DNA of 64,000 nt from Escherichia coli O157:H7 str. 2011EL-2287 (GTDB lineage Bacteria > Pseudomonadota > Gammaproteobacteria > Enterobacterales > Enterobacteriaceae). A program made the position numbers and the translations under genes. Under the pieces are notes generated by a model. It ran no database searches. It was not told the DNA's origin and saw only the letters and a list, made by a program, of their open reading frames with translations. Positions 24,203 to 41,429 of the stretch are shown piece by piece; positions within the stretch are counted from its first letter, which is position 1, and every line of letters starts with the position of its first letter. The stretch lies in NCBI GenBank assembly GCA_000614405.2, contig GCA_000614405.2_3612.1. The stretch is one strand, 5' to 3'.

Positions 24203-24220
24203 TTTTTTAACTGAATTATC

Positions 24221-25156: not shown

Positions 25157-25350
25157 TGTAAACAGTTTGTTTGTAAACAGTTTATACGTGAACAGTTAAC
25201 TATGTAAACTATTGAGAATGTAAACAGTAAAGGAAGTGAATAGTAAGCGAGTGAATATTAATAGCGTGAATAGTGACAGCGTAAACAGTCAGGCATGTCA
25301 ATTAAGTCTAAAGTGTCAAAGGTGTCATATTATGTCACCATTATGTCAGA
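25157..25350. repeat. array of short degenerate tandem direct repeats (GTAAACAGT / GTGAATAGT units, then TGTCA units)
   Basis: About 9 units of GT(A/G)AA(C/T)AGT at 12-17 bp spacing, then about 6 TGTCA repeats; no coding potential. Confidence 0.6.
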
Positions 25351-25609
25351 CAAGTTTTTCTCCTCTTTGTCAAGTGCTGCATGAAAATTTACAATCTGGT
25401 ATGGTAGCATTTTTGCGGCCCTGTTTACATTCAGTTGTGTATGTATAAGCCTTGTTGTGTGGGCGTTTAGACGTCTAGACGGTTGGAAGTCTACAGGTCA
25501 ATATCTAATCTATTGGTTGCTAACTATATCCCACACAAATAGTAAGAAATATAATTGTTATGTGTGTAAACTGTAACTCATGTTATCAATCCCTGTATGG
25601 ATCGCCAGT

Positions 25610-25637
25610 GGTGCGCATAATGGGTATTATGTTAAAT
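25610..25637 (+). other. dif: dif-like XerC/XerD site-specific recombination site
   Basis: GGTGCGCATAA-TGGGTA-TTATGTTAAAT: both 11-bp arms identical to E. coli dif as recalled, 2 differences in the 6-bp central region. Confidence 0.7.
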
Positions 25638-26765
25638 TGCCCGTAATGATAACAGTTCTCACAATGATAGGTATTCTCATTCACCCCACAAGATAGGTTG
25701 CAAATGTTGTGCCACTGTGTGAACGGCCTCACCTATTAATTTGCCTCACTGCCTCGATATTTGAGAATTATTATAAGAATGAGAAGTATTCCCATTCCGT
25801 CCGCCTGGCAGCACTCCTGTCGGTCAGGTCAAAATCGTGGTAGAATTGGGCCTATTCAGATATTTCTGGCTGACTCTTCAGGTCTGTGTGGGAAAAGCCA
25901 ACCTCTCCGGCGGGGCAGGGGGAGGTCAATTAAAAAATTTACGTGGTGTATGAAGCGCTCTTCAGGTAAGGCAGGTATTATGGGATGAAACCCTCTTCAG
26001 GCAATGATATTTGTGGGTGTGATATTTGCTGGAAAGCCAGATATGACGGGACTCCCGGCGGGGCAGGGGTAGTACAGACAGGGAAAATATGGGGATGTAG
26101 TTGGGTGAATTGATCGGGCAGGTAGAGTATGGAATATGTTACAAGTATGTTAAATATGGAGGTTGAATATCTGTAGGATTTGTGTGTAAAATCAAAGACT
26201 TAAGGGGTGTTGTGGTATTTTCTATAAATAATTCAAGTTTAATAGGCAATATTTGTCTCTATCCGCTTTGTGTGGTAAACAGATTCAGATTAGATTGGTT
26301 TACAAGTGTATACATAATATACAAATTAAAGATACAAGAAACCCCCCTCCCCCCTTCGGCTACCATTCACCTTTTCCTCTGACTGGTACTTAAACACTTA
26401 TTCAGACTCTTCAGGTTATCACCCATATATCATATGGCAGTGACTGGTGTCCTCCGGCCCCTCTTTCGTCACCCGTCCGCTTCGCCATGCTAATGCCATA
26501 GCTAATGGTTCGGTTGTTCACCCTGTTCACTCAGGTGTATCTCTATACCCCTTCAAACCGAAGAGAACAGAAAACCCGAATTACTCGGTAAAAGAAAAGA
26601 GAAGAACTTAATTTTATCAGGATAGGCAAGAATGTCAAGGCATGACTGCTCACTAAACAAGCAAACAGTCATGTGTGGGAGGTAAGTGATTGTGGTGGTA
26701 GGAAATTTAGTTGAAAGATGTGTTATAGGTGCTTCCAGCACTTTAGCCGGGCAGCTAATTGTGTG

Positions 26766-26981
26766 TCAGTCCAGCGGTTCATCCTCTACTTCACTGAAAT
26801 CAATGTTCATGGTCTCTTCCCAACCATCGATCTCAGCACAAGAGTGGAGTTCTTTAGGGTTTACTCCCAAAGCCTCAGCAACAGAGTCTATATTTAACAC
26901 CTCTGGCAGGTATGATTCATCGAATTCAAGGTAAATCAGGCCACGAGTGTTGTCAGCTCCACCAAATATTTCTATCTTCAT
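26766..26981 (-). CDS. hypothetical acidic protein
   Basis: ORF; last gene of the minus-strand transcription unit. Confidence 0.5.
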   Translation of the reverse strand: MKIEIFGGADNTRGLIYLEFDESYLPEVLNIDSVAEALGVNPKELHSCAEIDGWEETMNIDFSEVEDEPLD

Positions 26982-27102
26982 AAAATCTCCTCTGGGAATG
27001 AAAGTGTGAACAGGGTTTTATACGTTCTAATGCACAGGAATTATACACGTTTGCCTCTTCAGGCCATGCTTTAGCATGAGGAACCTGTGTGGGCTCGGTG
27101 CT

Positions 27103-27516
27103 TCATAGTCTACCACCTCTGAACTCTTCGTGCTCAGGCATAATAGAGAACCAGATATCTACGATGTCCTCCCACGTCAGGTCATCAGCCTCAGGATCTG
27201 TCTGGGACGAAGATGAAGAGTCCTCAGAATCTAAGTTTTCCTCTTTAACTGGCTCATCCAAGGGACATATGGTCACTCCTTCGGATGTCTCTTCAGATGC
27301 ATGTGTGTTGATCATGTTCCACCCGTGAGTATTCCGGCAACAGCCGCTATGGAAGTAATGATCATCAGGATCACCACTAAAACTTCGGACAATGTTCTCA
27401 TTGTGTATTCCATATTCTCCAAATGATGTGTGGATATTATCACTGGAGCGGCAATGTGTCAACAGAAACGCCGCGAGGGTTTGGTTAAAATCCGAGCGTA
27501 TGGTGATTTGGGTCAA
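27103..27516 (-). CDS. hypothetical acidic protein (start uncertain; internal ATG at 27315 has better SD)
   Basis: ORF; Ser/Asp/Glu-rich. Confidence 0.4.
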   Translation of the reverse strand: MTQITIRSDFNQTLAAFLLTHCRSSDNIHTSFGEYGIHNENIVRSFSGDPDDHYFHSGCCRNTHGWNMINTHASEETSEGVTICPLDEPVKEENLDSEDSSSSSQTDPEADDLTWEDIVDIWFSIMPEHEEFRGGRL

Positions 27517-27675
27517 AACGGACGTGCGTTCTCGCTACGCTCGAAAAAGAGAGTTGTTTGTAGGAAGCTCTTAAACGCTCTGTAAGGAGATTATCTGTCC
27601 AAGGTATGCAATCGTGCACCAGATAAAGAAAAGGACGCCACAGAGCGTCCTAGGTGTCTTAAATTTGATATTTTG

Positions 27676-27987
27676 CTATACCCATGAGGGCTTATCAAGG
27701 TTGGAGTAGCTAAAAGGTGTCAAAAGGTGACTGTCAAAATCTCTCAAACTATCCAAATCTTTTTCCTCGTCCTGACACCATCTGTGCCTACATTTATTGT
27801 TGTAGTGCATAGAATGCATAGCGTTCTGCAACTTAACAGGCACAATTGATTCAGGAGTAGTTAGTATTGTTGGGTATGCCAGAACCACCTCAAACAGTGG
27901 AAACACATCGAAACTAAAATCTACCTCTGCAGAGGTTGATGGCATGTAGGAGTATTTAGCCGTCTTTGTAGACATAATCCACCTCAC
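27676..27987 (-). CDS. hypothetical protein
   Basis: ORF, coupled to upstream gene. Confidence 0.5.
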   Translation of the reverse strand: MRWIMSTKTAKYSYMPSTSAEVDFSFDVFPLFEVVLAYPTILTTPESIVPVKLQNAMHSMHYNNKCRHRWCQDEEKDLDSLRDFDSHLLTPFSYSNLDKPSWV

Positions 27988-28310
27988 ACAGGTTTGATAA
28001 TACCTTCACCGAATAACTCTTCATATCTAATCTTATCCGGATCCCACTCCTGGATAATTTCGAAGACAATATCCAACCCTGGGATAATCACTTCTCCAGT
28101 GTCAAGTTTGGCAAGAACAAAACCAGAAGGCTGAATGGTTTCCCAGTTGCGACGATTGGAATAGAAGACCTCGAAAATATCACCGACCTTGATCTGTTGA
28201 TCAAGATGTTCAAGGTTCTCTTTCATGTAGACGCAGCGTATTTTTCGTGCAGGCCATAGACCACCTGCATCGCGTTCATTCAATTCTTTTACAGTGATCG
28301 GTATACTCAT
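27984..28310 (-). CDS. hypothetical protein
   Basis: ORF with SD GGAGA. Confidence 0.55.
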   Translation of the reverse strand: MSIPITVKELNERDAGGLWPARKIRCVYMKENLEHLDQQIKVGDIFEVFYSNRRNWETIQPSGFVLAKLDTGEVIIPGLDIVFEIIQEWDPDKIRYEELFGEGIIKPV

Positions 28311-28330
28311 CTCAAATCTCCTTCATAGAT

Positions 28331-28362
28331 AGTAAAAAGAGGGGCCCAAGCCCCTCTCTTTG
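28331..28362 (-). terminator. rho-independent terminator-like hairpin (minus strand)
   Basis: AGAGGGGC-TTGG-GCCCCTCT followed by TTTTTAC on minus strand. Confidence 0.5.
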
Positions 28363-28365
28363 TCA

Positions 28366-28671
28366 TTATTCTACAGAGCGTTTGAACAGAATGTCTGCCT
28401 CGGACATGTGCTCAACCTCTTCTTCGATTTTAGCTCGACGTTTTTCAGCCTCATATCGAATATCGAACTCGGTAGCCACCAGAGATTTGATGAATTTAGG
28501 AGAATACAGATGATCCTGCTTCTCAACAAGAATGATATCCTTGATGGCATCTTTCAGATCTTTAATCTGAAGTTGGAGTTCCACCAGTTCTTCGATTGTT
28601 TTGCGAAGGCGATCACGCTCTGCAGTGTCAGAAGGAAGAGAGGTGAACAGTTCAACTTTAGATTTAGCCAT
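28366..28671 (-). CDS. hypothetical protein
   Basis: ORF with SD AGGAGAC. Confidence 0.55.
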   Translation of the reverse strand: MAKSKVELFTSLPSDTAERDRLRKTIEELVELQLQIKDLKDAIKDIILVEKQDHLYSPKFIKSLVATEFDIRYEAEKRRAKIEEEVEHMSEADILFKRSVE

Positions 28672-28699
28672 AGTAAGAGTCTCCTTATGTTGTTTTAAA

Positions 28700-28951
28700 T
28701 TAACGTTCTACAAAAATACCGTTCAGTTCAATAACCAGGAATTTCTGGTCTTCACTATCGTCTCGTGCCAGCACCTCACAGACGTATCGGTCATCCCCAT
28801 CATCATCGCAGTCAAATACAAGACTGAGGACTTTATCATGATAAACCTTCGCCACTACCGCCTCGTAAGTATTGCCGATTGTGAATCCAAGATAATCTCC
28901 GATGCATTTGACAACAACATGGTCGCCAGCATTCAAGTCAATCTTCGTCAT
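28700..28951 (-). CDS. hypothetical protein (ORF extends to 29017; ATG 28951 has SD AGGAG)
   Basis: ORF. Confidence 0.5.
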   Translation of the reverse strand: MTKIDLNAGDHVVVKCIGDYLGFTIGNTYEAVVAKVYHDKVLSLVFDCDDDGDDRYVCEVLARDDSEDQKFLVIELNGIFVER

Positions 28952-29106
28952 TACTGCGCTCCTTGGGTAATAATACTGTATGTAAAACTTTAACCAGAGA
29001 TGTGAATAACGCCCCAAAACACACCGATAGCGCTAAAACAGACAAGGCCATCATTAAAGCTTCAGTAAAATCTGTCATTCCTCACCTCTTGTTAGTCACT
29101 ATACTA

Positions 29107-29370
29107 TCATTTATCCTTACCGTCAAGAACTTTTTTAAATCTTTCAGGGATATCTCCCGTTCTTAGATAGTTCATGACCTCACAAGGTTCCCACTTGAAT
29201 TTCTTACAAAGCAGGGCGGCTGATATTGTCTCATTGCGAAAAGAAAGGATATTAATATCCCATTCTGAGAACCCCAACTTCCGAAGGGTAGCTACAGAAA
29301 TCCTCACCGCAACCCAGCAGCAAAAACATGCAACAAACGCCACTGCTATAACCCACATCAGGATGTTCAT
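29107..29370 (-). CDS. hypothetical membrane protein
   Basis: ORF; N-terminal TM segment ILMWVIAVAFVACFCCWVAV. Confidence 0.5.
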   Translation of the reverse strand: MNILMWVIAVAFVACFCCWVAVRISVATLRKLGFSEWDINILSFRNETISAALLCKKFKWEPCEVMNYLRTGDIPERFKKVLDGKDK

Positions 29371-29459
29371 ACAAGCACCTCACTGAAATACAAGACACAG
29401 TGTTAAGGTTACTGACCAGCAAATAATTAACAGTGCCGTTGCAACCTTGGCAAGATTTA

Positions 29460-29747
29460 TCATAGTGCCTCTAAGATTTCATATCCTTCGGGTCGGAATA
29501 CAAGCCACTCCGTGGCTCCGTTTGGTCGATACGCTTTATACAGAACAACCTGATCTCGGCACATGCACATAGCTACATAGTTTTCATCCACACCTGCAGC
29601 CTGCATTGCAGCTTCTTCTCCGGCAACTGCTTTGCTTACAACCTCCTTGGTAGGCAGGTGTGCGATCAGCTCGTCACCATCATTAATTCCAAAATGGCTG
29701 AGCTCTCCATTGGTATCTTTAATCTTAATCTTAACCAGATCTTTCAT
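29460..29747 (-). CDS. hypothetical small acidic protein
   Basis: ORF in tightly coupled operon. Confidence 0.5.
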   Translation of the reverse strand: MKDLVKIKIKDTNGELSHFGINDGDELIAHLPTKEVVSKAVAGEEAAMQAAGVDENYVAMCMCRDQVVLYKAYRPNGATEWLVFRPEGYEILEAL

Positions 29748-30076
29748 TAGTCTTCCTCCAGGTTCAAAGGCCCTAAGATTTCATATGCCAGATTAGAAGT
29801 TACCAGAGGGTCTTCTGCATCTTTAGTATTATACCACCCGTGAATAACCAGAGTCCCACTCTGTTTCATATCCAACTGGAACTGTTCTGCAGTTTCCTCA
29901 TCCATCTCTAAGATCTCCATGAGGTATTTGATGTTAGGAAGGTATGCAGCTGTTACAGTTCCCTCCACCAAACCTTCGGGCCAACCTACATCTGGATGAC
30001 AAGTAGGAACCAGGTTGGTCAGCTTAATGGTGTACGCTTTTTCTGCACGAGCCTTCAGTAACGGGTCAATCTTCAT
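29747..30076 (-). CDS. hypothetical small acidic protein
   Basis: ORF; start/stop overlap with neighbours. Confidence 0.5.
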   Translation of the reverse strand: MKIDPLLKARAEKAYTIKLTNLVPTCHPDVGWPEGLVEGTVTAAYLPNIKYLMEILEMDEETAEQFQLDMKQSGTLVIHGWYNTKDAEDPLVTSNLAYEILGPLNLEED

Positions 30077-30426
30077 TATTCGTCCTCCTCTTCGGTGCCT
30101 GCTTCCAGTAATAAGTTAAGAATATCTTCTGCACAAGGCTCATAGAACTCTTGGCCTTCATTATCGATGATTTTGTAGTCATCTCCACGAATAATCAGAG
30201 GATCACTCTCAAAATTATCGAGACCTTTAACAACGACAACACGATCGATTGCCATCATTGTAAGAACTTTATCAACATCTTCCTCTGCTACACCATACTG
30301 CAGCAGAATGTCTTTGGTAGGAGGAACAGCATCCACCACAACACCGTTACCAAAACCTTCCGGCAATTTAGATAAAATATCTTCCGGAACCGCATTCACA
30401 TCAAAACCGGTAATTTCTACTTTCAT
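30076..30426 (-). CDS. hypothetical small acidic protein
   Basis: ORF; start/stop overlap. Confidence 0.5.
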   Translation of the reverse strand: MKVEITGFDVNAVPEDILSKLPEGFGNGVVVDAVPPTKDILLQYGVAEEDVDKVLTMMAIDRVVVVKGLDNFESDPLIIRGDDYKIIDNEGQEFYEPCAEDILNLLLEAGTEEEDE

Positions 30427-30687
30427 TTACAGCACCTCTTCGTCGACTACTTCATAAAAATGGCTTGGGATTGCAATAGCGTTCTCACCTTCACCTACAA
30501 ACACAGTTCCGTCAAGAATCAACATCATAAGAATTTCTGGAATATCCTCTTCCGGAACGTTGCCAAAACCTTTAATCAGCGTGTAGGTTGGAAGATTTAC
30601 CTCTAAGATGTCACCATCTTTAGAACGGAAATCTACACCGTCCTGAATCTCTGCCGTTTCAAGGTTTTTCAATTTAATCTTCATCAA
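30427..30687 (-). CDS. hypothetical small acidic protein (MKIKL family)
   Basis: ORF with SD CAGGAGAC; minus-strand TTGACA-N17-AATAAT promoter upstream. Confidence 0.55.
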   Translation of the reverse strand: MMKIKLKNLETAEIQDGVDFRSKDGDILEVNLPTYTLIKGFGNVPEEDIPEILMMLILDGTVFVGEGENAIAIPSHFYEVVDEEVL

Positions 30688-30763
30688 TCGGTCTCCTGTC
30701 TTGTTAAGATGAAGGTATTATTTCACACAGGGTTGGCGTTGTCAACACCTGTGTGCAAGAAAA

Positions 30764-31159
30764 TTACTGAAACAGTGCGGATAAATTACCTTCTGGTGGA
30801 AACTTATCTGCCAAAAACGGTGTTAGCACAGTAGCCTTCTGAAGATCTGGGGTCCACTCGTTGTTCAGAACATCCCAGTAGTACGCAATGTTGCTGTGTG
30901 GGTGCCGCATTACGAACTTTTTCCCTTCGTAGTCATCTGAAACCTCTACAGAAGAAATAACAACAGAATCTTCAAGGGTTTCTTCATAGAAAGATCCACC
31001 TTCAAATTTCCAACGAGATGCAAGAGCCCCTGCCTTGAACGCTGCAGATAACGGACTGTCGGCAAGAACATACATTTCTTGCACTCTGTCGCTGCGATCT
31101 TTGCTTCTTACGTTGTATACAGTATCTGAGCTATACTCAACACGGTATAGTCTTACCAT
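30764..31159 (-). CDS. hypothetical protein (paralog of 32970-33368)
   Basis: ORF; shares H(P)..YW....W(T)P motif with 32970-33368. Confidence 0.55.
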   Translation of the reverse strand: MVRLYRVEYSSDTVYNVRSKDRSDRVQEMYVLADSPLSAAFKAGALASRWKFEGGSFYEETLEDSVVISSVEVSDDYEGKKFVMRHPHSNIAYYWDVLNNEWTPDLQKATVLTPFLADKFPPEGNLSALFQ

Positions 31160-31491
31160 TACCGCACCTCCTCAATAACTTCCACATCTGAACCTACCAC
31201 AAATGCAAAAGGACAGGTTTCATGAAAGACATCCGGATCGCCGCCAAGCTTGCTAACAATTTCTCCACCACTAATAAACACAAGCTCACCGATATTCATC
31301 AGATTGCTGAAATAGTATCCATAATGATTAAAGAATGCAGCAGGGTCAGGTAAACTAGTAGCCTCAAGTTCTACATCGTTTGAGATTACTTTCTTATCAT
31401 AACCTCTCGCCTTCTGAGATGCAAGATCTGCAGAATCTTCAGGCGACCGGAGATGCACAGGAATTGTTTCACCAATAAATCGTACTTTCAT
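31159..31491 (-). CDS. hypothetical small acidic protein (MKV family; ORF extends to 31518)
   Basis: ORF; SD GGGTGAG before ATG 31491. Confidence 0.5.
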   Translation of the reverse strand: MKVRFIGETIPVHLRSPEDSADLASQKARGYDKKVISNDVELEATSLPDPAAFFNHYGYYFSNLMNIGELVFISGGEIVSKLGGDPDVFHETCPFAFVVGSDVEVIEEVR

Positions 31492-31495
31492 ATTC

Positions 31496-31759
31496 TCACC
31501 CAACAACCATAGCTTCAAAAGGAGTCATGAACGAATAAACGGCATCATCATCTGCTTCAGGGAATGCTCCCAAAGACTTCATGTCTGAGCCCTTGACAAA
31601 TACAAGGTTTTGATCAAAAGCTTCTTGGGGATCAATCCGATACATATCTCGTAGAATATCGCTTACCTCCTCATCAAGAGGTGAGTATGCTGTGCACGTT
31701 TTTCCGATCAAGCTTTGAGAATCAGGGTATCCACCTGAAGTTTTAAAATAAACAATCAT
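31496..31759 (-). CDS. hypothetical small acidic protein (paralog family, KGSDMKSLGA motif)
   Basis: ORF. Confidence 0.5.
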   Translation of the reverse strand: MIVYFKTSGGYPDSQSLIGKTCTAYSPLDEEVSDILRDMYRIDPQEAFDQNLVFVKGSDMKSLGAFPEADDDAVYSFMTPFEAMVVG

Positions 31760-31854
31760 ATAGTATCACCTCTGGCAAGAGATGGGGATTCCTTTCCCAC
31801 AAATAATTACAAACTTTTCTTTTTATTGAGAGAAGTATGCTAATCCAAGCAGGA

Positions 31855-32124
31855 TTACTCTTCTACAATCTCATACACATCAGGAGTTACAATCAACTCT
31901 TCTCCGTTACCCGGTGCAACAAACACCACCAAGCCTTCAGGTGTGTGCTTTTTAGCCATCTCGATAACATCTTCCCGCAGAGCTGGCTCCATCAGATCAA
32001 AACCTTCACCCAGGGCATCACGAACCACCTTCATATAGTCCACTGGTTGTGCTTCAACAATCATGCCTTCAACCAGTCCACAGTTTTTGTCTGCCAGCTC
32101 AGTTTTGAATAATTTAATTTTCAT
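31855..32124 (-). CDS. hypothetical small acidic protein (MKIKL family)
   Basis: ORF with SD GAGGAGAC. Confidence 0.55.
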   Translation of the reverse strand: MKIKLFKTELADKNCGLVEGMIVEAQPVDYMKVVRDALGEGFDLMEPALREDVIEMAKKHTPEGLVVFVAPGNGEELIVTPDVYEIVEE

Positions 32125-32150
32125 TTAGAGGTCTCCTCAATTATTTGATA

Positions 32151-32252
32151 TTAATAGCCGTAACCTAACACATTAACTACAATTGCGATTGCAAACATAA
32201 TTTCAAAGCATGCAATCTCTACATTTGGGACTAATTTCTTAATCACACCCAT
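32151..32252 (-). CDS. hypothetical small hydrophobic peptide (33 aa)
   Basis: ORF below cutoff; SD GAGGTG 7 nt upstream. Confidence 0.3.
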   Translation of the reverse strand: MGVIKKLVPNVEIACFEIMFAIAIVVNVLGYGY

Positions 32253-32261
32253 TGTAGCACC

Positions 32262-32579
32262 TCATTCTCCAAAGTCAATCTTTACTTTGCCTTTCCCCTT
32301 ACCTTTCTTTCCACCACATTTAGCCAGCTGACGTGCTGCAACATCTACCATACGGTCAGTTGCCTCGTAAGCATCACTGCCTTTAGCTTTGGCAATAACT
32401 TCTTTTCCAGAATTGTCAAAAATGAACGCCATAACTTCCTGGTGATCATTTTCAACTTTTACACTCACACGTGCATAGTTGGCAGAGGGGTGCAAACGCT
32501 CCAGCTTAGACATTTTGTGGGAAATGAAAGACACCATACCTTCAGTGATTTCTACGTTGCCAGTGATTTCAATTTGCAT
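32262..32579 (-). CDS. hpf: ribosome hibernation promoting factor homolog (HPF/YfiA/RaiA family)
   Basis: MQIEITGNVEITEGMVSFISHKMSKLERL...VSVKVE...DAYEATDRMVDVAARQLAK aligns along its length with E. coli HPF (MQLNITGNNVEITEALREFV...KLARQLTK); SD AAGGAAC. Confidence 0.75.
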   Translation of the reverse strand: MQIEITGNVEITEGMVSFISHKMSKLERLHPSANYARVSVKVENDHQEVMAFIFDNSGKEVIAKAKGSDAYEATDRMVDVAARQLAKCGGKKGKGKGKVKIDFGE

Positions 32580-32626
32580 AACGTGTTCCTTTTAAAGAAG
32601 AGGGAATAACTCTCTCTTTGAAAACA

Positions 32627-32655
32627 ATAATACTATAGCTGAAGCGTTGTGTCAA
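32627..32655 (-). promoter_or_regulatory. sigma70-like promoter for the HPF homolog (minus strand)
   Basis: TTGACA-N17-TATTAT on minus strand about 50 nt upstream of the hpf start. Confidence 0.5.
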
Positions 32656-32661
32656 CAGTTT

Positions 32662-32952
32662 TTACAGATTGTTGTCGATAGTATTTAAAATATCCACAGC
32701 AAGATCTGCCATTTTTCGAACATACTCTGCAAACTCAACAGAATCCTTGATCAAAGAATTTACAGGGTCGTACCCTAGAGCGTTCAAAATGGCTGCAGCA
32801 TCTACAACCTTTTCATCATTTGCAAAGATCTCTCCGTCAAACTTATAGGTCCATTTTGAGTCAATCTTGGCAGGGCATGGCTGGTCCATGCTTGTTACAC
32901 CATCGTCTTTAACCTCTCCTGCGTTATCAATATTCAGAACTAAATCCATCAT
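32662..32952 (-). CDS. hypothetical protein
   Basis: ORF. Confidence 0.5.
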   Translation of the reverse strand: MMDLVLNIDNAGEVKDDGVTSMDQPCPAKIDSKWTYKFDGEIFANDEKVVDAAAILNALGYDPVNSLIKDSVEFAEYVRKMADLAVDILNTIDNNL

Positions 32953-32969
32953 AGTGGCACCTCACTGTT

Positions 32970-33368
32970 TCAGTTTAGCTTTTCTTCAACAACCCCATAG
33001 CTCGGGGCAGAGTCAAGAGCTTTTTGGTTTAAAAGTGGTGTAGCAGAATCTGCAAACGGTGTCCAAGTTTTTGTTCTGGCATTCCAGTAATGCTTCACTC
33101 TGGAATCTGGATGCACTATAACAAAAACTTTTTCACTTGTCAACACATTAATTTCTTCTACACCCTTGCTGATAATTTCTCCGTCATAGCCCCCAGTCTG
33201 GTATCCTTCGTACCAGGTTCTTGCATAGGCATAGCCAGCCTGCCAGCATGCAGCCTCCTCCGAGGTGGAGACTACGTAGAAGTCTTTCTCAAATTCTGGA
33301 ATACGCCCTTGCTTTACGCTCCAAGCTCCGCGAATTTTCATTGTAACTTTAAACAGTTTATTTTTCAC
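32970..33368 (-). CDS. hypothetical protein (paralog of 30764-31159)
   Basis: ORF; VIVHPDSRVKHYWNARTKTWTP versus VMRHPHSNIAYYWDVLNNEWTP. Confidence 0.55.
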   Translation of the reverse strand: MKNKLFKVTMKIRGAWSVKQGRIPEFEKDFYVVSTSEEAACWQAGYAYARTWYEGYQTGGYDGEIISKGVEEINVLTSEKVFVIVHPDSRVKHYWNARTKTWTPFADSATPLLNQKALDSAPSYGVVEEKLN

Positions 33369-33380
33369 AACGGTTACCCA

Positions 33381-33635
33381 TCACAGCTCTACAATATCTG
33401 CATCTGACCCTACCCCAAAGGCATAATAGGACTCTTCCCCGAAATAATATTCAGGTGCACCAGCGGTGATCAGGTCTGATCCCAAGATAAACACCACGTT
33501 GTGGCCTACATAACTGTGATGTTGCCGCACAGGATCATCCCACGGCAACCCTTCAAAGTATACCGCAGGAACGACCTTTCCATTCAGGAAGGATTGTCCC
33601 AAGTAGACGTTAGAATCAAGAATTTTAACCTTCAT
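33381..33635 (-). CDS. hypothetical small acidic protein (MKVK family)
   Basis: ORF; MKVKILDSNVYLGQ...SDLITAGA. Confidence 0.55.
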   Translation of the reverse strand: MKVKILDSNVYLGQSFLNGKVVPAVYFEGLPWDDPVRQHHSYVGHNVVFILGSDLITAGAPEYYFGEESYYAFGVGSDADIVEL

Positions 33636-33852
33636 GATCGTCCTCCACTACCTCTACATCCTCACCTAGGGCAAAGTTGTAGGTCCACTGACTGTCAAAG
33701 CATTCCTGAGATGCACCAGCGGCAATAAGATCTGCTCCTTTTATTTTTAAAAGGTCAGGGTAATCTTCGTTAGGGACAGCAGTAAACACTTTTCCTACTA
33801 AAGGCTCCTGACCAATATAGAAGCTTGAATCTAAAACTTTAACTTTCATCAA
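33625..33852 (-). CDS. hypothetical small acidic protein (MKVK family)
   Basis: ORF; MMKVKVLDSSFYIGQ...ADLIAAGA. Confidence 0.55.
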   Translation of the reverse strand: MMKVKVLDSSFYIGQEPLVGKVFTAVPNEDYPDLLKIKGADLIAAGASQECFDSQWTYNFALGEDVEVVEDDHEG

Positions 33853-34136
33853 CGGTCTCCATCAGGTGGTTGTGGGACGTAAACACTGTTACGAATATCG
33901 TCCGCAGTATAGTAATAAGTGTCTCCAACCCTATCTCTGGCTGCAATGTACTCTGCTATACCAATAAGTGCCATTGATTTGGTGGCGTATCTTCCCCACT
34001 CGTTAGCTCCCCAGTAGAATTTAGACCAATAGGGAATAAGACCGAACAAATATACCTTTTGACGAACTTCCCAGTAAGTGCCTTTCCCGACAAGTTTAAA
34101 CTCAACTTCACCACTGTTAATCTTTTTCATTATCAA
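33849..34136 (-). CDS. hypothetical protein
   Basis: ORF, ATGA-type coupling. Confidence 0.5.
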   Translation of the reverse strand: MIMKKINSGEVEFKLVGKGTYWEVRQKVYLFGLIPYWSKFYWGANEWGRYATKSMALIGIAEYIAARDRVGDTYYYTADDIRNSVYVPQPPDGDR

Positions 34137-34429
34137 TCTCCCTCTACCGTGGTCGGATTGTCAGTAATAAATTGAGCATTAGCTGGAGGTACGCCTGACA
34201 TTTTCCACACGACCATAAGTTTGTAACCAGGCACTCTATTAAGCGCAGATCGAGTAGAGTTTGTGCACGTATACTTTCGCTTTCCAAACCCGTTCTCCAT
34301 CATAATCCAGTACCCAGTATCTTTGTCACCAGGTATTGGTAGACCACCTTCATCAACCCACTGAATGGACCACGGCACGATGGCTACAGCTTTATATTTA
34401 AACTTTTTAAACCACTCAAAAAGTTTCAT
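34133..34429 (-). CDS. hypothetical protein
   Basis: ORF. Confidence 0.5.
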   Translation of the reverse strand: MKLFEWFKKFKYKAVAIVPWSIQWVDEGGLPIPGDKDTGYWIMMENGFGKRKYTCTNSTRSALNRVPGYKLMVVWKMSGVPPANAQFITDNPTTVEGD

Positions 34430-34524
34430 AATTCAGCCTCGCATAGACATAATCACTATAAACAGGCAAACAATGAATCCGAATGCCACGCCACCCATAA
34501 ACGTTAATATTGATGCAATCATAG

Positions 34525-34710
34525 TCAATCAGCCTCGCTTGGCAACTCTTCCACCTTAACATGCCGAAAAGTGTTACCGTAATGGTTGATCCATGACATC
34601 AGCTCACTTTCTTGCTCTTCCTCTGGAATGAACTCTCGAATACTGACAAGTTTTAAGAAAACCCAATCACAATCTGCACCCATTCTACCAGACAGACAAT
34701 AGTGCTTCAT
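34525..34710 (-). CDS. hypothetical protein
   Basis: ORF. Confidence 0.4.
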   Translation of the reverse strand: MKHYCLSGRMGADCDWVFLKLVSIREFIPEEEQESELMSWINHYGNTFRHVKVEELPSEAD

Positions 34711-34729
34711 AAAAACCCTCCATCCTGGT

Positions 34730-34930
34730 TTAGAATACTGCCTCTTTTAATGATCCAAGGCGCAGCAGGTGTGAAATCTGATCCACATTCATGGTAGATT
34801 CAATCTCCTCTCCTTTGAAAGGTTCTCGGCAAAACAGTACTACATTCGGGTTTTCGCTACGCACTATATAATACAGATCGTTCAAATCATTCTCATAGTA
34901 GGTATTAAATTTAAGAATTTTGTCACTCAT
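34730..34930 (-). CDS. hypothetical protein
   Basis: ORF. Confidence 0.45.
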   Translation of the reverse strand: MSDKILKFNTYYENDLNDLYYIVRSENPNVVLFCREPFKGEEIESTMNVDQISHLLRLGSLKEAVF

Positions 34931-35184
34931 TTTCTACTCCTCTTCTTAGATTTTTGGGGAGAAACGCTTTCTGCAATACGAGACAAACGTTCTTCTGAAG
35001 CCTTGCCTATTCCAGGTTTTTTGAGTGGATTATCTTTATGACCACAATCCAATTGGATATCGGATACCTCTCCAACCTTGTAAGTCAATTCTAGCAAAAG
35101 GTTGTCGTCCTTGTCAAATGTTCTTACGATAAATTTTTTATCGTTCTCCTGAACTTCATATCTGGTACCTGCAGTATACAGCAT
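34927..35184 (-). CDS. hypothetical protein
   Basis: ORF. Confidence 0.45.
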   Translation of the reverse strand: MLYTAGTRYEVQENDKKFIVRTFDKDDNLLLELTYKVGEVSDIQLDCGHKDNPLKKPGIGKASEERLSRIAESVSPQKSKKRSRK

Positions 35185-35199
35185 GGTGCGATATCCAGA

Positions 35200-35547
35200 T
35201 CATTGAGCCTCCTTCTGCTGCAACAGCATTAACTCTTTGTTAGAGATCTTTACTGCTGTTTTTATTGTTCCATCTTTACGGAACCACGACCAGAACTCTA
35301 CAGTGTCTCCACTATCAAGCAAAGCATGCCCATGGTAGAAGTCTTTGTCCTTGGACAGTTTCTCATCTATGTCTGCATCGACACATTCGTGATCCATAGC
35401 ATTTTGCCTGAATGCATCGGTTATGCCAATGCACGCCTTGCTCTCAAGACTGGCATATCCGATATCTTTTAATTCAGTTTCCCAAACCCAGAACCCTATA
35501 AAAGCCACAACAGCTACCCACATTAATATCGATTTAATCTTTGACAT
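35200..35547 (-). CDS. hypothetical membrane-anchored protein
   Basis: ORF; N-terminal TM segment ILMWVAVVAFIGFWVW. Confidence 0.5.
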   Translation of the reverse strand: MSKIKSILMWVAVVAFIGFWVWETELKDIGYASLESKACIGITDAFRQNAMDHECVDADIDEKLSKDKDFYHGHALLDSGDTVEFWSWFRKDGTIKTAVKISNKELMLLQQKEAQ

Positions 35548-35607
35548 TCTCTCTACCTCTTTCTTAATTTGTTTAATTATGGCACATCCTTTGTGCCTTG
35601 TTGCACA

Positions 35608-36069
35608 CTACTTAGACAACAGTTCAAAATAGTGCAAAATTAACAGAAGTTGAATTACGCCTAGCACAACGGCAAGTATGTTAATCTTAGAATCAAAAAA
35701 CTTCTTAACTTTTACCCTAAAAGGCTCCTTGATGTCCTTTACGATCCTATTTATAGATGATTTCATATCCCTGATTACCATCCTAAACATTAGAGACGGA
35801 TCTTCCTTCTCTGTAACAGAATCGAAAACATACTCTCTTCGGTCATAAGGACCTCCAGATCTGCGTATTAACCTCTCCACAGAGACCTCGTACGACACAC
35901 CTGTAACGTAATCATCTATGATAAGTAGTGACGGGTCTTTATCGTCCAAGGGTATTAAAGTTATCTTTCCAGATTTTGTTAAAATTTCTCCTTTTTCAAG
36001 CAAGGTGTACCAATGCTCTCTACCAAGATTGTTGAGGCACGTTTTTACATATTTAACAAACATCGTCAC
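35608..36069 (-). CDS. hypothetical protein
   Basis: ORF. Confidence 0.5.
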   Translation of the reverse strand: MTMFVKYVKTCLNNLGREHWYTLLEKGEILTKSGKITLIPLDDKDPSLLIIDDYVTGVSYEVSVERLIRRSGGPYDRREYVFDSVTEKEDPSLMFRMVIRDMKSSINRIVKDIKEPFRVKVKKFFDSKINILAVVLGVIQLLLILHYFELLSK

Positions 36070-36269
36070 CCCTCATCGCACGTCTGATATAACCACTCTA
36101 TGAAATCTTGATACCATTCGCCCTCTGAGCGCTCCGTAGGCCAATAATCTTCACCCTCTCGTGCATTAAAATCTGAGTATTCAACTTTCCACTCCTTTAC
36201 CAGCTCGTGGAGAAGGTTTTCAGCCTGCTCTAAAGATTTATTTTTTGCCATTGCTGTCTCCTTTTTCAA
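36066..36269 (-). CDS. hypothetical protein
   Basis: ORF with SD AGGAGAC. Confidence 0.45.
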   Translation of the reverse strand: MKKETAMAKNKSLEQAENLLHELVKEWKVEYSDFNAREGEDYWPTERSEGEWYQDFIEWLYQTCDEG

Positions 36270-36470
36270 GATAGTTATACATCAGAACTGCACCACCTAA
36301 AATGGCTACCAGTAACAATACCCCAGATAGCATCTCAATAAACATGGCTTGAAACACTGGAAGGTCTCCCTAAATTAACGCACCATTTTAAATACATGCT
36401 CTTTTCCCATAAAGGTGCCTGGCTAAGATCTGCGTAGAACGCAATCTCTTTAAGAACAGTATAAACAGTT

Positions 36471-36707
36471 TTAGGTGCGGTCTCCATCCCTACTCTCCTT
36501 TTTCTCCTTACGGATATTCTTGTAGTAATCAACTAGGCACATTATTACAATGAAGATAACAATAGGCCAAAAAGGTGCAGCAGTGATGATGGTGATAAAA
36601 TCATCAAACTTCACCTTTCGTCTAGCTACGATGCATACACCTGTCAAGAATACCGCTGTTATAACGGCTATTACCAGGTAACCTATTAGCACAGCATTTA
36701 TACTCAT
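36471..36707 (-). CDS. hypothetical membrane protein
   Basis: ORF; two hydrophobic segments. Confidence 0.5.
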   Translation of the reverse strand: MSINAVLIGYLVIAVITAVFLTGVCIVARRKVKFDDFITIITAAPFWPIVIFIVIMCLVDYYKNIRKEKKESRDGDRT

Positions 36708-36738
36708 TAGTCCTCCCTTTTGTAGGTTAAATTATATA

Positions 36739-37272
36739 CTACAGATGGTTGCTTATGGTGTCAAGAAAATTATCTCGTTCTTTCTCGGAGTTTTCACGGG
36801 TGTAGCTGAAAAACATATCTAGAATAACCTTATTGATATATTCCAGCTCCTCTGTGTTCAGGTACTTAGCAGGATCTACAATGACATCCCAAATATCATA
36901 CAGACCACACTCATGATATCCATAACGCCACTCAATTGTCAAGCTGAGCGGCAAATCTTTACCGTCACAAACAACCTTCCATCTACATATGTTGGTATCT
37001 GGGCGTATCTGTGCACGGTATACCTGTACAAAATCCAATTTGAATTTGAGGTATTCGTCATGCAATTTAAGCACAAAGCTCTCGATTTGTGGAGACACTT
37101 TTGCAGCAAACTGTGCGTATTTGTATTTGCACTGGATGATCTTTCTGCGTTTTGCAGTTAAATTTTTTGCCGCCAGTTGTTCTTCAGTGTATCTCCACCT
37201 ACGATCAACAAACGCAACAGGGTCTTTGTCCCCATAGAGGTCTTCCCAGTTAATCAGAAGCATACCTGTCAC
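36739..37272 (-). CDS. hypothetical protein
   Basis: 177-aa ORF. Confidence 0.5.
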   Translation of the reverse strand: MTGMLLINWEDLYGDKDPVAFVDRRWRYTEEQLAAKNLTAKRRKIIQCKYKYAQFAAKVSPQIESFVLKLHDEYLKFKLDFVQVYRAQIRPDTNICRWKVVCDGKDLPLSLTIEWRYGYHECGLYDIWDVIVDPAKYLNTEELEYINKVILDMFFSYTRENSEKERDNFLDTISNHL

Positions 37273-37502
37273 TCCTCCACAACTTCAAGGCCTTTACCGC
37301 CTCGCTCTGGCAGATTACTTAAAGATAGGTAATACATATAATCAGGAGAGATCCTGCCAGACTCTGCACCTGCAGATAGTAAATCTTTTCCCTTAACCAT
37401 GACAACATTATCGTTTGCAGATAGTCGTTTTGCTTCCACAATTTTACCAACGCAGTCAACCAAGGAAGGGTACCCTAAATCTGTAAGAAATTTAACTTTC
37501 AT
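37269..37502 (-). CDS. hypothetical small acidic protein (MKVK family)
   Basis: ORF; MKVKFL...GKDLLSAGA...EVVEE. Confidence 0.55.
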   Translation of the reverse strand: MKVKFLTDLGYPSLVDCVGKIVEAKRLSANDNVVMVKGKDLLSAGAESGRISPDYMYYLSLSNLPERGGKGLEVVEE

Positions 37503-37541
37503 GCTACCTCCTACTTCTACCGTCCCTGGTAAGATAAATTA

Positions 37542-37940
37542 TTACTGAACAAAGCGCGGAGCTGGGAAGGATAACTCTTCTAAAGAGAAGATTTCATTCC
37601 CCACAATCCATGTTGCAGGATCATCTGGGTTGACTGGATAGATAATCATCACCTCGTCAGTGTTACATACCCGCTTTTTACCTGTGGAGTCATCAGCAAC
37701 CAGCATGCGCGGTTCTTCAGAAATGCACAGGTAGCCTCCTCGGCCCACTGTTCCTTCCACAGGGTCTTGCCCTTTGATCACGATGATTATCTTCTCTCCT
37801 GAGGCGATATTACCTTGCACACTCACCGTTTGACCAACCTTGGATGTGCCAATCTTAGTGACTTCGAACATTACATCCCGAATTACTGTTGCATAATCGC
37901 CAGACACTTTCTTACCTTCTTTAGTGATCTCAATCTTCAT
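37542..37940 (-). CDS. hypothetical protein
   Basis: ORF. Confidence 0.5.
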   Translation of the reverse strand: MKIEITKEGKKVSGDYATVIRDVMFEVTKIGTSKVGQTVSVQGNIASGEKIIIVIKGQDPVEGTVGRGGYLCISEEPRMLVADDSTGKKRVCNTDEVMIIYPVNPDDPATWIVGNEIFSLEELSFPAPRFVQ

Positions 37941-38209
37941 ACACTGGGCTCCTTAAATGAATCTATGTAATCAATTAAATCCCAAGCATCCCTATGACCT
38001 GTCAGAGGGTATACTTCTCCAAGAGGGATCATAGCAATAAGTCTATCAAAAACCCAATCTGGACGCAACATTTTATGGTGATACTCCCACTCACCTTCTA
38101 CAGACTTTTTCTGAGTGATCAGGATCTCTGTGTAGTGTTTCGCCTGTCTTGAGTAGATTGAGAATGACTTGTACATAAATGGCCCCCTCTTGTTGAAAAC
38201 AAAATACAC
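37937..38209 (-). CDS. hypothetical protein
   Basis: ORF. Confidence 0.5.
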   Translation of the reverse strand: MYFVFNKRGPFMYKSFSIYSRQAKHYTEILITQKKSVEGEWEYHHKMLRPDWVFDRLIAMIPLGEVYPLTGHRDAWDLIDYIDSFKEPSV

Positions 38210-38211
38210 TA

Positions 38212-38526
38212 CTACCAGGTCACTGTCAAGTAGGCAACCGTGTTATTTTTCTCTGGAGAGATGCCAACAACATCTACCTGTAGACCTCCTGCCCTCAAAT
38301 CCCCAACAATATGCGGGAAGTAATCTGAGAGATGCGAGGGTAGATTTATCGAAAATCCGCATCCCAGAAAGCCTGCTAACGCTTTATTTTGTATCTCCCC
38401 TACAATCGCATCATAAATGGAGTTAAGCTCGTCAGGGAGCGTTACAGGACGTTTTAGCGCTAACTGGTGTAATTTGTCCTTAGCACTCATTTTCATTTCA
38501 GGTCTACCTCTGGTGGTGCCAACCAC
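38212..38526 (-). CDS. hypothetical protein
   Basis: ORF overlapping the end of the upstream methyltransferase gene. Confidence 0.45.
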   Translation of the reverse strand: MVGTTRGRPEMKMSAKDKLHQLALKRPVTLPDELNSIYDAIVGEIQNKALAGFLGCGFSINLPSHLSDYFPHIVGDLRAGGLQVDVVGISPEKNNTVAYLTVTW

Positions 38527-39026
38527 ATAAATGGCGGCAAGCCTAAACGGTTTTTCTTATCCCACACAAAATATGCATATGCTTGCCCGTCAGTTCTGCC
38601 ATTTGATTGAAATGACGGACGCTTAGATATTGTGATCACAGTGGTAGGTGCATTATCAAGCCACCATTCAAATCTGGCTTTGCTTTCCAGAAAATTAAGA
38701 CGTAAAAGCATAATAACTACGTCAGCATCTTTCAACGCCTTGTCTACAAACTCACGAGCCAAGCTGTATGGTGGGTTGGTGATAATACAGTCAACATGGT
38801 TGTATTCTGTATTCAGATAGTCAACACCTTCTTGGATTTCTCCCCATGCAGATCCTAACGGCATACGGGAGTAGAACACACCTGAGGCACTATTCCTGCA
38901 AGGCTCTAAGTAGGTCCAGTCTTCTGGGAACGGAATAAGGTCATACAGCCCTTCTGCACACCACTCCGGTGTCACATACTCATCGTAGGCGTTACGTTGT
39001 TCATCAGGTTTTCTAGCACAAGTCAT
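38493..39026 (-). CDS. DNA methyltransferase (N6-adenine or N4-cytosine class)
   Basis: Catalytic motif IV ITNPPY. Confidence 0.7.
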   Translation of the reverse strand: MTCARKPDEQRNAYDEYVTPEWCAEGLYDLIPFPEDWTYLEPCRNSASGVFYSRMPLGSAWGEIQEGVDYLNTEYNHVDCIITNPPYSLAREFVDKALKDADVVIMLLRLNFLESKARFEWWLDNAPTTVITISKRPSFQSNGRTDGQAYAYFVWDKKNRLGLPPFMWLAPPEVDLK

Positions 39027-39047
39027 GCAAATCTCCAGATCATAAAA

Positions 39048-39067
39048 GCCCTCCGAAGAGGGCTTTA
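39048..39067 (-). terminator. terminator-like hairpin after the ClpP-like gene (minus strand)
   Basis: AAGCCCTC-TTCG-GAGGGCTT followed by TTATGATC on minus strand. Confidence 0.4.
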
Positions 39068-39077
39068 GAATTAATGT

Positions 39078-40127
39078 TTAAACTTCTTCGACAATTCCTG
39101 CACCCAGGATTTTTTCATTGAGCTCTTTTGCTGTTTTAATAATATTATCTACCAGACGCTTGCGAGTCTTATCTTTCACCTTAACCTCTTCACCGCCGTT
39201 CAGAGTAGTCTTCAATTGAGACAGAATATCCTGAAGTTCAACGACAGAGAATCTCTGCAGATCTTCTGAAGTAATCTCACCCAGGGCAATTCGGACGGTC
39301 TCGCCACTTTCCATCTGCAGATTCAGGAACACAGTGTGAACATCACCTTTCGAACCACCCGCTTTTGCAGATTCAACAGCATGAACTAACTCATCTAAAG
39401 ATGTGCACTGGTGAATCTCCGGAAGACCTGCTTCACCTAACACGCCTTCTTCATCACCTTTTGCCAGAAGCTTTTTCGGTTTTTGTCCGTTCTGGATGCG
39501 TTGTATGTTGCCTTCATCCAGAATAATAGCTCCAGTGCGTGCTGCCAGCTCTTCTCCGTCCAACCACACTTCGCCACCAGCTGTGATGGATGCGATCTCA
39601 TCTTCTGTCAGCACCCCACCGTAGTATTTTTCGATTAAGCGTTCGAAACGTTTTTTCCAGTAGCTGACCTGAGTATTCATGTTCACACCGTTACCATAAG
39701 TGCCACCTTGGTAGTAGTGGAACATAAACTCTGTGTCCGGAGCCACAGTGCGTTCTTTGCAACCCAGCCATAAGATTGTTCCCGCAGAGCAGCACATCCC
39801 TTCAGCATGTGCAACAACGCTTGCCTGAGACTCGCGGAATGCCTGCAGATAAGCCATTGCAATGTGCACGCAACCCCCAGGACTATTGATGATCACCCGA
39901 ATGCTTTCTTCCGGCTGAGCCATACGGATCGTCTGCAGACGAGACATATGATCTTGTAAGTCTTCCAAATCGTCGATATAAAGAACGTGGTCAACAACTG
40001 GTGTTGGGTAGCTGTATGTTTCCATAATACCACCCGGCATACCGAACATTTTATTACTCATAGGTTCGAAACCGTTCTGTTTTTCTTTCATGCCGTGTAC
40101 CATGGTGCTACGAGGTGTTAAATTCAT
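39078..40127 (-). CDS. ClpP-family serine protease homolog with about 150-aa C-terminal extension
   Basis: INSPGGCVH motif and ClpP-like Ser (CCSAGT) context; 349 aa. Confidence 0.65.
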   Translation of the reverse strand: MNLTPRSTMVHGMKEKQNGFEPMSNKMFGMPGGIMETYSYPTPVVDHVLYIDDLEDLQDHMSRLQTIRMAQPEESIRVIINSPGGCVHIAMAYLQAFRESQASVVAHAEGMCCSAGTILWLGCKERTVAPDTEFMFHYYQGGTYGNGVNMNTQVSYWKKRFERLIEKYYGGVLTEDEIASITAGGEVWLDGEELAARTGAIILDEGNIQRIQNGQKPKKLLAKGDEEGVLGEAGLPEIHQCTSLDELVHAVESAKAGGSKGDVHTVFLNLQMESGETVRIALGEITSEDLQRFSVVELQDILSQLKTTLNGGEEVKVKDKTRKRLVDNIIKTAKELNEKILGAGIVEEV

Positions 40128-40187
40128 GAGAAATCCTTAATATTGGAAGTTGAAAGCTATTTATTTAAACCTGATTCACATTTACCT

Positions 40188-41391: not shown

Positions 41392-41429
41392 GTTGGGACT
41401 CCTTTCAGATTGAGATGTGCCAAGTACTT

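Follow-up and report, generated by a model that had tools for sequence, protein, structure and literature searches.

A core gene of the Vequintavirus genus for a short HPF/YfiA-family protein, and its possible role in managing idle ribosomes

The protein considered here, gp144, is the product of a small minus-strand phage gene and is a member of the HPF/YfiA (PF02482) fold family of the short type, that is, without a C-terminal dimerisation domain. Its most probable role, to which a probability of about one half is given, is the management of the idle ribosome pool, in which gp144 would bind vacant ribosomes and either protect them or compete with host factors. The gene, its promoter and its family assignment were already known, being present in GenBank and in a paper of 2019. 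What is added is that the gene is core to its genus and under purifying selection, that the protein lies on an isolated branch of the family, and that the published assay of its ribosome association was uninformative. The interest of such a gene lies in the phages that carry it and in the state of the cells that they meet. Vequintaviruses are among the most often isolated coliphages and are used in therapeutic and biocontrol cocktails, and hosts in the gut are often slow-growing or starved, with ribosomes that are hibernating. Phage control of hibernation, in either direction, would bear on the replication of virulent phages in bacteria that are not growing, where phage therapy meets a practical limit.

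The window, by which is meant the whole stretch of 64,000 nucleotides that was analysed, is by nucleotide identity that of a Vequintavirus, an rV5-type virulent coliphage. More than 100 Vequintavirus genomes (PDX, I29, rV5, FV3, BASEL Bas48-59 and others) share 97-98% identity with the 2 kb around the gene, in agreement with the initial annotation, which had taken the gene to be phage-encoded. The protein is 100% identical to rV5 ORF144 (ABI79209), annotated in the rV5 record DQ832317 as a 'sigma 54 modulation factor' behind a promoter annotated as P144, and over its full length it matches phrog_12469, a family labelled 'unknown function', at E 7.5e-71. Mizuno et al. reported in 2019 that an HPF is encoded by six closely related E. 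coli phages, rV5 among them, and by Cronobacter phage GAP32 (PMC6375957). A literature search found no transcriptome or functional papers on the gene beyond that one, and in the BASEL paper the gene goes without discussion. A 2020 paper refers to it with the words 'as already described'.

The open reading frame occupies positions 32262..32579 on the minus strand, begins with ATG and encodes 105 aa. Residues 1-88 (32316..32579, minus strand) form the HPF/YfiA-type core domain, and residues 89-105 (32265..32315, minus strand) form a C-terminal tail, GGKKGKGKGKVKIDFGE, which has a net charge of +4 and is predicted to be disordered. Overlapping the TGA stop codon (32262..32264, minus strand) is the GAGGTG ribosome-binding site that serves the next small ORF, rV5 ORF145 (32151-32252), which encodes a hydrophobic product of 33 aa. 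Upstream of the gene is an intergenic gap of 82 nt, the 5' leader (32580..32626, minus strand) carrying a Shine-Dalgarno sequence, AAGGA, at 32587-32591, 7 nt before the ATG. A hairpin in this leader was considered as an attenuator and dropped: relative to shuffles, the four loci that were folded gave z of +0.2 to -1.0, and in the divergent clade described below it has no counterpart. The gene sits in a long unit, read leftward, that holds genes of replication and small accessory genes. At E up to 0.1 Pfam matches none of the ten ORFs that flank it, and no RMF-like partner is seen among those ten by the same search; the window contains no tRNA genes.

The alignment of the product with bacterial HPF/YfiA, proposed in the initial annotation from a motif that reads in the protein just as it was quoted, is borne out by profile searches. 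The PF02482 model (Ribosomal_S30AE), which has 88 positions, matches residues 3-88 at E 1.8e-12 with 48.3 bits against a gathering cut-off of 23.7, and TIGR00741 is passed with 45.9 against 40.9. In a phmmer comparison with the PDB the best matches are to E. coli HPF (2RQL/4V8H/6H4N; E 5e-12 to 2.5e-11, residues 1-89), with YfiA/protein Y chains reaching an E of only 0.35-0.78. At the finer level of the equivalog models gp144 falls short of both, scoring 55.8 bits against a cut-off of 125 for NF007780 (the HPF equivalog, gammaproteobacterial YhbH) and 17.6 bits against 158 for NF007654 (the RaiA equivalog). By such scores gp144 is clearly nearer to HPF than to RaiA. Since NF007654 is failed and the tail is basic, the name 'RaiA' that RefSeq gives to the phage product is to be read as a label at the level of the family and not as an equivalog call.

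The predicted structure leads to the same family. An AF2 model for which the input was an alignment with enterobacterial HPFs has a pLDDT of 83.7 overall, with 88-95 in the residue blocks of 1-80, 80 in residues 81-90 and less than 50 in residues 91-105, which are predicted to be disordered. It shows the topology beta1-alpha1-beta2-beta3-beta4-alpha2, which is recovered with low confidence in a single-sequence model made with no alignment. When the structure was compared with the PDB by Foldseek, the best 35 matches were all to HPF, RaiA or pY, with TM values of up to 0.91; the leaders were V. cholerae HPF and the E. coli HPF of the 100S ribosome (4hei, 6h4n_x; TM 0.79-0.91, rmsd 1.0-1.1 A).

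How, then, does the phage protein compare with the better known members of the family? The closest in both sequence and structure is the short HPF of E. coli and other enterobacteria (YhbH, 95 aa; 2RQL, 6H4N, 6H58), with E 5e-12, 40-43% identity (37-43% across Enterobacterales HPFs) and an rmsd of about 1.1 A; both are single-domain proteins that have no dimerisation domain. HPF proper promotes 100S by acting on the 90S dimers that RMF induces and converting them. Unlike the enterobacterial protein, gp144 is served by a phage sigma-70 promoter and has a Gly/Lys tail that brings it to 10 residues more than the enterobacterial HPFs, uniformly of 95 aa; the host hpf is transcribed within the rpoN operon. 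The RaiA protein of E. coli (YfiA, protein Y; 113 aa) shares with gp144 the fold, the predicted binding site and an extension beyond alpha2, but identity is only 22% and the RaiA tail is acidic (-4) where that of gp144 is basic (+4). The long HPFs of Firmicutes and others (about 190 aa, for instance in S. aureus and B. subtilis) have an N-terminal domain of the same fold, found at Foldseek ranks 9, 17, 20 and 25. They differ in having the C-terminal dimerisation domain, in place of which gp144 has only its short, predicted disordered tail, and for this reason self-sufficient formation of 100S particles by gp144 is not expected. Among viruses, PF02482 proteins occur in large myoviruses, and the HPF of GAP32 clusters elsewhere than the rV5-type proteins (Mizuno et al. 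2019, PMC6375957). Among these other virus-encoded homologs, which include those of this Cronobacter jumbo phage and of metagenomic viral contigs, is PHROG 8990, which gp144 matches weakly (E 1.5e-6), the rV5-type proteins standing apart in their own PHROG 12469. A tblastn search with the rV5 protein at E up to 10 returned no other phage group beyond a few marginal matches, and this is in keeping with an independent acquisition.

Ahead of the gene is a predicted sigma-70-type promoter (32627..32655, minus strand), which corresponds to the rV5 promoter P144 annotated in DQ832317. Its -35 element, TTGACA (32650-32655, minus strand), is separated by 17 nt from the -10 element, TATTAT (32627-32632, minus strand), and the two hexamers together match the consensus at 11 of 12 positions. 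Sites with at least 11 of 12 matches number eight on the coding, minus strand between 24 and 42 kb and zero on the plus strand, against an expectation of 0.28 +/- 0.49 from 100 dinucleotide shuffles, so that P144 is more than a chance match. The extended -35 context, AAACTGTTGACA (32650-32661, minus strand), is three-fold enriched, with 30 copies in the window at up to two mismatches where 9.5 +/- 3 are expected, and the sole perfect copy is the site ahead of the gp144 gene. The -35 element together with a TATTAT or TATCAT -10 is kept in seven Vequintavirus loci, and in the divergent clade AAACTGTTGACAC is retained with a weaker -10. From these motifs P144 would be expected to act as a promoter. 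The consensus-like promoter that the initial annotation had noted is thus present and conserved; its further remark that few genes of the operon are so equipped holds roughly, with about eight strong sites over 18 kb of small genes. In the 82-nt gap a search turned up no terminator-like site, and P144 is therefore internal to a longer unit and not the sole source of transcript. In the rV5 paper the gene is placed in a transcription unit of genes 82-163, and 33 sigma-70 promoters are reported (PMC3606486).

The distribution of the gene is that of the genus. By tblastn 118 phage records contain gp144 at an identity of at least 90%, to be set beside 120 records that carry the NrdA of the window at 95% identity or more, which makes the gene core to Vequintavirus (118 of about 120 records). 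The 62 records with NrdA at 80-90% identity, for instance PVP-SE1 of the sister genus Seunavirus, give no match to gp144 even at E 10. In PVP-SE1 there is no hpf at the syntenic place and the region is not collinear, so that the acquisition cannot be dated more precisely from that phage. A more distant homolog, P0004, is a protein of 103 aa that is 64% identical to gp144 and is encoded in syntenic position on contigs of 125-137 kb from a divergent, uncultured relative. This lineage is absent from the isolate collection and has about 75% nucleotide identity to the window over one third of the region; the neighbours of its hpf are collinear with those of the window at 28-95% protein identity, with hpf itself mid-range. 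An exhaustive phmmer search over 1.84 billion representatives gave P0004 as the single sequence with E under 1e-10, and no cellular HPF-type sequence did better than E 2.5e-7, by which measure the phage clade is an isolated, divergent branch of the family. It is the exhaustive search that forms the basis for this isolation, a word-indexed homolog search with gp144 having returned its own clade only. Another hit, P0006 (1160 aa, E 2.9e-9), was rejected as a relative: it consists of eight near-identical tandem repeats and is matched in eight stretches, which added together appear to make up its score.

Between the gp144 and P0004 genes synonymous change is saturated (pS = 0.78) and pN in the core is only 0.22, which indicates purifying selection on the gene. 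Among seven Vequintavirus sequences that were compared, the core is invariant save for four variable positions and a one-residue N8/N9 indel. These data weigh heavily on the idea that the gene is a decaying, functionless passenger from a host. That idea can draw on the location of the gene in a variable accessory region, which is not collinear in the Seunavirus PVP-SE1, a phage without the gene, and on frameshift polymorphisms at the C-terminus. It has, however, to face a gene that is present in essentially every Vequintavirus record, with an intact ORF, a nearly invariant core and a conserved promoter and ribosome-binding site; the data on selection effectively refute it. A gene that is carried by all Vequintaviruses and is clearly selected is of use to the phage.

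The only published test of what that use might be is the one made by Mizuno et al., in which the rV5 protein was produced from pBAD with arabinose in E. coli and was detected by MS in the crude extract; no gp144 peptides were found in the 70S/100S fractions, and 100S was unchanged (PMC6375957). The cells were harvested at an OD600 of 1 and their ribosomes, ahead of the gradient, were spun down through 500 mM NH4Cl, and growth phase and salt washes are named by the authors as possible causes of the negative result (PMC6375957). The supplementary lists of that study allow the result to be read against the host's own factors. Crude extract from the gp144 strain yielded 4 peptides of host HPF, 5 of RMF and 5 of RaiA, and neither host HPF nor RMF appears in any of the three ribosome preparations. 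The assay would accordingly score E. coli HPF itself as non-binding and is uninformative on gp144; the published negative lacks a working positive control and is not decisive. Host RaiA also figures in the lists: ribosomes from cells expressing bS21 gave 1 peptide of it and those from cells expressing bL12 gave 2 peptides with 6 spectra, and it is not among the 71 proteins of the ribosome preparation from the gp144 strain. This absence comes from a single comparison of shotgun lists made without quantification, and sampling noise may account for it; the absence may also resemble displacement by a salt-labile competitor. That the published non-binding result came without a working positive control is worth carrying forward, as is the fact that the contact surface and the tail of gp144 differ from those of host HPF.

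The contact surface was compared in an alignment set of 118 Enterobacterales HPFs and 19 diverse family members. The hallmarks of the family that are kept in gp144 are, in E. coli numbering, K23, K26, E44, D69, Y71, D75, D79, R83, Q84 and K87, and those that survive in both phage clades include R83, Q/H84 and K87 on alpha2 and K22 and K25 on alpha1. R83 contacts m4C1402 in a ribosome structure described in a preprint (10.1101/2025.10.07.680626). Other positions have changed extensively. At sites that are invariant or nearly so among enterobacteria, gp144 has R17 changed to V, R33 to S, D/E51 to M, T53 to F, H55 to F, H62 to I, M70 to A and K80 to V and, towards the C-terminus, K89, K93 and H95 each changed to G. 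According to the cryo-EM work, T53 and H62 contact m2G966, H55 contacts the C-terminus of uS9, and K80 and K89 contact 16S rRNA (10.1101/2025.10.07.680626). Altogether 13 of the 19 reported contact positions differ between gp144 and E. coli HPF. The change of R33 to S is also among the changes at reported ribosome contacts. On the basic ridge of alpha2 (K80, R83, K87, K89, K91 in E. coli numbering) R83, K87 and K91 are kept and K80 and K89 have become V and G, with further lysines following in the tail; the P0004 clade has T at the K80 position and S at the K89 and K91 positions, and K80 is also missing in 3 of the 19 diverse bacterial family members. F55, V62 and V/T80 are likewise present in some bacterial HPFs of the diverse set, which places most of the gp144 substitutions inside the variation of the family. 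The aligned sample contains neither F nor R at position 53, neither M nor S at position 51 and no A at position 70.

So remodelled a surface invites the suggestion that the HPF fold has been neofunctionalised away from the ribosome, with the dsRBD-like beta-alpha-beta-beta-beta-alpha domain binding some other RNA or a host or phage protein. This is the main alternative to the preferred reading, though it is judged unlikely. The replacement of many contact residues that are invariant in enterobacteria would fit it, as would the long, isolated branch and the failure of Mizuno et al. to detect ribosome association (PMC6375957), which came from an assay that has no working positive control. It would also fit that comparison of the two phage clades reveals no added conservation at the putative contacts, where 9 of 16 positions are identical as against 52 of 72 in the rest of the core (Fisher p = 0.24, with few sites), and that the best conserved stretches are beta1/alpha1 (MQIxITGNVEITEGMVxFIS) and AKAKGxDAYEATD and not the distal basic ridge of alpha2. 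A precedent for dual function is offered by S. aureus HPF, which is reported also to bind YwlG (PMC9522360). What speaks against a move off the ribosome is the survival in both clades of the hallmark residues on alpha1 and alpha2 and the family-like character of most of the substitutions, and the neighbouring genes, with 0 of 10 matching Pfam, suggest no partner.

The preferred reading, that gp144 manages the idle ribosome pool, extends from the family, fold, promoter motif, conservation and selection of the protein to a putative binding of ribosomes and to its consequence. Host RNA polymerase would make gp144 from the start of infection, and on vacant 30S or 70S ribosomes the protein would then dock, like cellular HPF and RaiA, in the tRNA/mRNA channel that runs between the head and the body. 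Docking would proceed via the conserved K22, K25, E43, D69, Y71, D75, D79, R83, Q84 and K87, with remodelled contacts and a longer basic tail. In this position gp144 may shield the decoding and 3'-end region of 16S rRNA in vacated ribosomes from host RNases and may compete with host RaiA, HPF and RMF, and the result would be a stock of intact, quickly reusable ribosomes for making the late proteins of the phage, above all where the gut host grows slowly or is starved. For a large virulent phage such a stock would plausibly be of selective advantage in gut hosts that grow slowly. Such a scheme has its models in the host. The RMF, HPF and RaiA proteins of E. coli block YbeY and RNase R at sites on 16S rRNA, and regrowth is speeded by hibernation factors (PMC7913689); RaiA and HPF quit the ribosome once translation resumes and bind only ribosomes that are free of mRNA and tRNA (PMC8778775). 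Counting against a ribosomal role are the negative result of Mizuno et al., the change at 13 of 19 contacts, the lack of extra conservation at contact sites, the failure of the HPF equivalog model and the isolation of the branch.

That members of the family bind only ribosomes free of mRNA and tRNA makes a selective silencing of host translation unlikely, and the description of gp144 as a translation-silencing factor is an extrapolation from the family name. A cruder effect, general host shut-off, would have an early excess of gp144 block the A site and the P site, and so stop host synthesis or induce dormancy. By covering the sites of tRNA and mRNA, members of the family do inhibit translation in vitro (PMC8778775), and the gene lies behind what is predicted to be a strong promoter of early type. 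Yet a protein that binds vacant ribosomes is blind to the difference between host and phage mRNA, so that the phage would be starved equally, and arabinose-driven expression to OD 1 gave normal 70S profiles with no growth defect reported (PMC6375957). Dormancy and carriage, moreover, lie outside the known life cycle of a lytic phage, and general shut-off is accordingly thought very improbable. The same consideration removes the basis for the dormancy compatible with plasmid-like carriage that the initial annotation had envisaged, rV5 being lytic (PMC3606486).

A variant of the preferred reading carries the opposite sign for hibernation. Here gp144 would be an anti-hibernation factor that resembles RaiA in its action, occupying the HPF/RaiA site with its 17-residue basic tail directed towards the site of RMF. 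RMF would thereby be excluded and 100S particles either not formed or resolved, and host RaiA and HPF would be displaced by a loosely held gp144 that initiation factors and mRNA evict easily, such that the ribosomes of dormant hosts are woken or kept awake. A counter-hibernation HPF mimic of this kind, a loose binder enabled by its remodelled contact surface and basic tail to evict or exclude host RaiA, HPF and RMF without locking the ribosomes, is a doubtful proposition. If it were true, rV5-type phages could re-mobilise the ribosomes of starved or dormant E. coli, or save them from dismantling, and a first trace of counter-hibernation would then be that host RaiA is missing, in the published supplementary data, from the ribosomes of cells expressing gp144. 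That absence, with RaiA present in the crude extract of the same strain, may point to displacement, and competition with cellular homologs was proposed by Mizuno et al. (PMC6375957), but the comparison is single and unquantified and one of the positive samples amounts to one peptide. The small 100S peak, too, was unaffected in their experiment, though there is little 100S at OD 1.

The tail bears most directly on this variant. The C-terminal tail of RaiA is held to block RMF and the formation of 100S (PMC8778775, a review), and in gp144 the tail, longer by 10 residues, is of a kind whose sequence is free to vary while it stays basic: in P0004 it reads SKSKGIDKRTAKWDY, different and yet basic, with a charge of +3 beside the +4 of gp144. 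Against the parallel with RaiA stand the core of gp144, which is HPF-like and not RaiA-like, and a tail charge opposite to the -4 of RaiA. The tail is also polymorphic among isolates. Frameshift variants in APCEc02 and Murica shorten the protein to 99-101 aa, from which it follows that the distal part of the tail is dispensable, and YN3 carries a deletion of 2 aa.

The hpf gene of the window, which encodes the 105-aa gp144 of rV5-type phages, also occurs within a divergent, Vequintavirus-like lineage that is represented by four Logan/ENA contigs of 15-125 kb (L002-L005). In each of these the gene lies at 4001-4312, in a syntenic position, and its product is 64% identical to that of the window. 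The neighbouring genes are likewise collinear with those of the window, with protein identities that range from 28 to 95%, and nucleotide identity amounts to only ~75% across one third of an 8-kb stretch. No representative of this lineage was found among 50,697 isolate phage records, and the lineage probably forms a species or genus within the Vequintavirinae that has yet to be isolated.

The gene is followed in the window by a 33-aa hydrophobic ORF (MGVIKKLVPNVEIACFEIMFAIAIVVNVLGYGY; 32151-32252, minus strand), the equivalent of rV5 ORF145, which starts 9 nt past the hpf stop and whose GAGGTG ribosome-binding site overlaps that stop codon. A TTGACT-N16-TACAAT site (10/12, with TG; window 32278-32251) spans the end of hpf. 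The 33-aa ORF is absent from the corresponding position in the divergent clade carrying the 103-aa homolog P0004.

Among isolates, the window and loci L006-L010 included, a hotspot for insertions and deletions in hpf is the purine-rich tract (GGAAAGAAAGGTAAGGGGAAAGGCAAAG; window 32265-32315) that encodes the Lys/Gly tail. A +1 change in APCEc02 gives a 101-aa product ending in ...GRKKGKGERQSKD, a -1 change in Murica gives one of 99 aa ending in ...KGKAK, and YN3 has lost 6 nt. Towards the N-terminus, an AAT indel at N8/N9 splits the isolates into two groups, ITGNVEIT versus ITGNNVEIT, the second of which shares its form with E. coli HPF. Some of the hpf indels could be homopolymer sequencing errors.

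With regard to the host hibernation factors, the published analysis of salt-washed ribosomes (PMC6375957, Supplementary Data 2-5) lists RaiA in ribosomes of the viral bS21 and of the viral bL12 expression strain. For ribosomes of cells producing the rV5 HPF homolog, 71 proteins are listed, host RaiA not among them, although RaiA, HPF and RMF were all detected in the crude extract of those cells. Host HPF and RMF appear in none of the three ribosome preparations.

The small genes surrounding hpf include two sets of paralogs, all on the minus strand and all without a match in a Pfam search. One is a pair of ~131-aa proteins encoded on either side of hpf (window 30764-31159 and 32970-33368; 31% identity, E 1e-7), and the other a trio of 74-84-aa proteins (33381-33635, 33625-33852 and 37269-37502) that share 31-40% identity. 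On a larger scale, the extended -35 motif AAAnTGTTGACA, which forms part of the hpf promoter, occurs in copies that change strand at ~23-24 kb, being mostly on the plus strand within 11000-23000 and mostly on the minus strand within 24000-42000. This switch is consistent with two divergent, outward-reading blocks of small early genes that meet there.

The labelling of hpf in public records varies from sigma 54 modulation factor, RaiA, HPF and ribosome hibernation factor to hypothetical protein, and the PHROGs entry for the rV5-type family (phrog_12469) reads 'unknown function'. Some records, OR062525 and MT884008 among them, carry the erroneous label 'ATP-dependent protease La type I', and in APCEc02 and A6-1 'sigma 54 modulation factor' is placed on an unrelated 89-aa gene downstream of hpf. 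Finally, 18 records labelled as Campylobacter jejuni phages (MG0656xx; A147, A135, C15 and others) match E. coli rV5-type phages at 97-100% identity across the hpf region, and these are probably coliphage contaminants or mislabelled entries rather than true Campylobacter phages.
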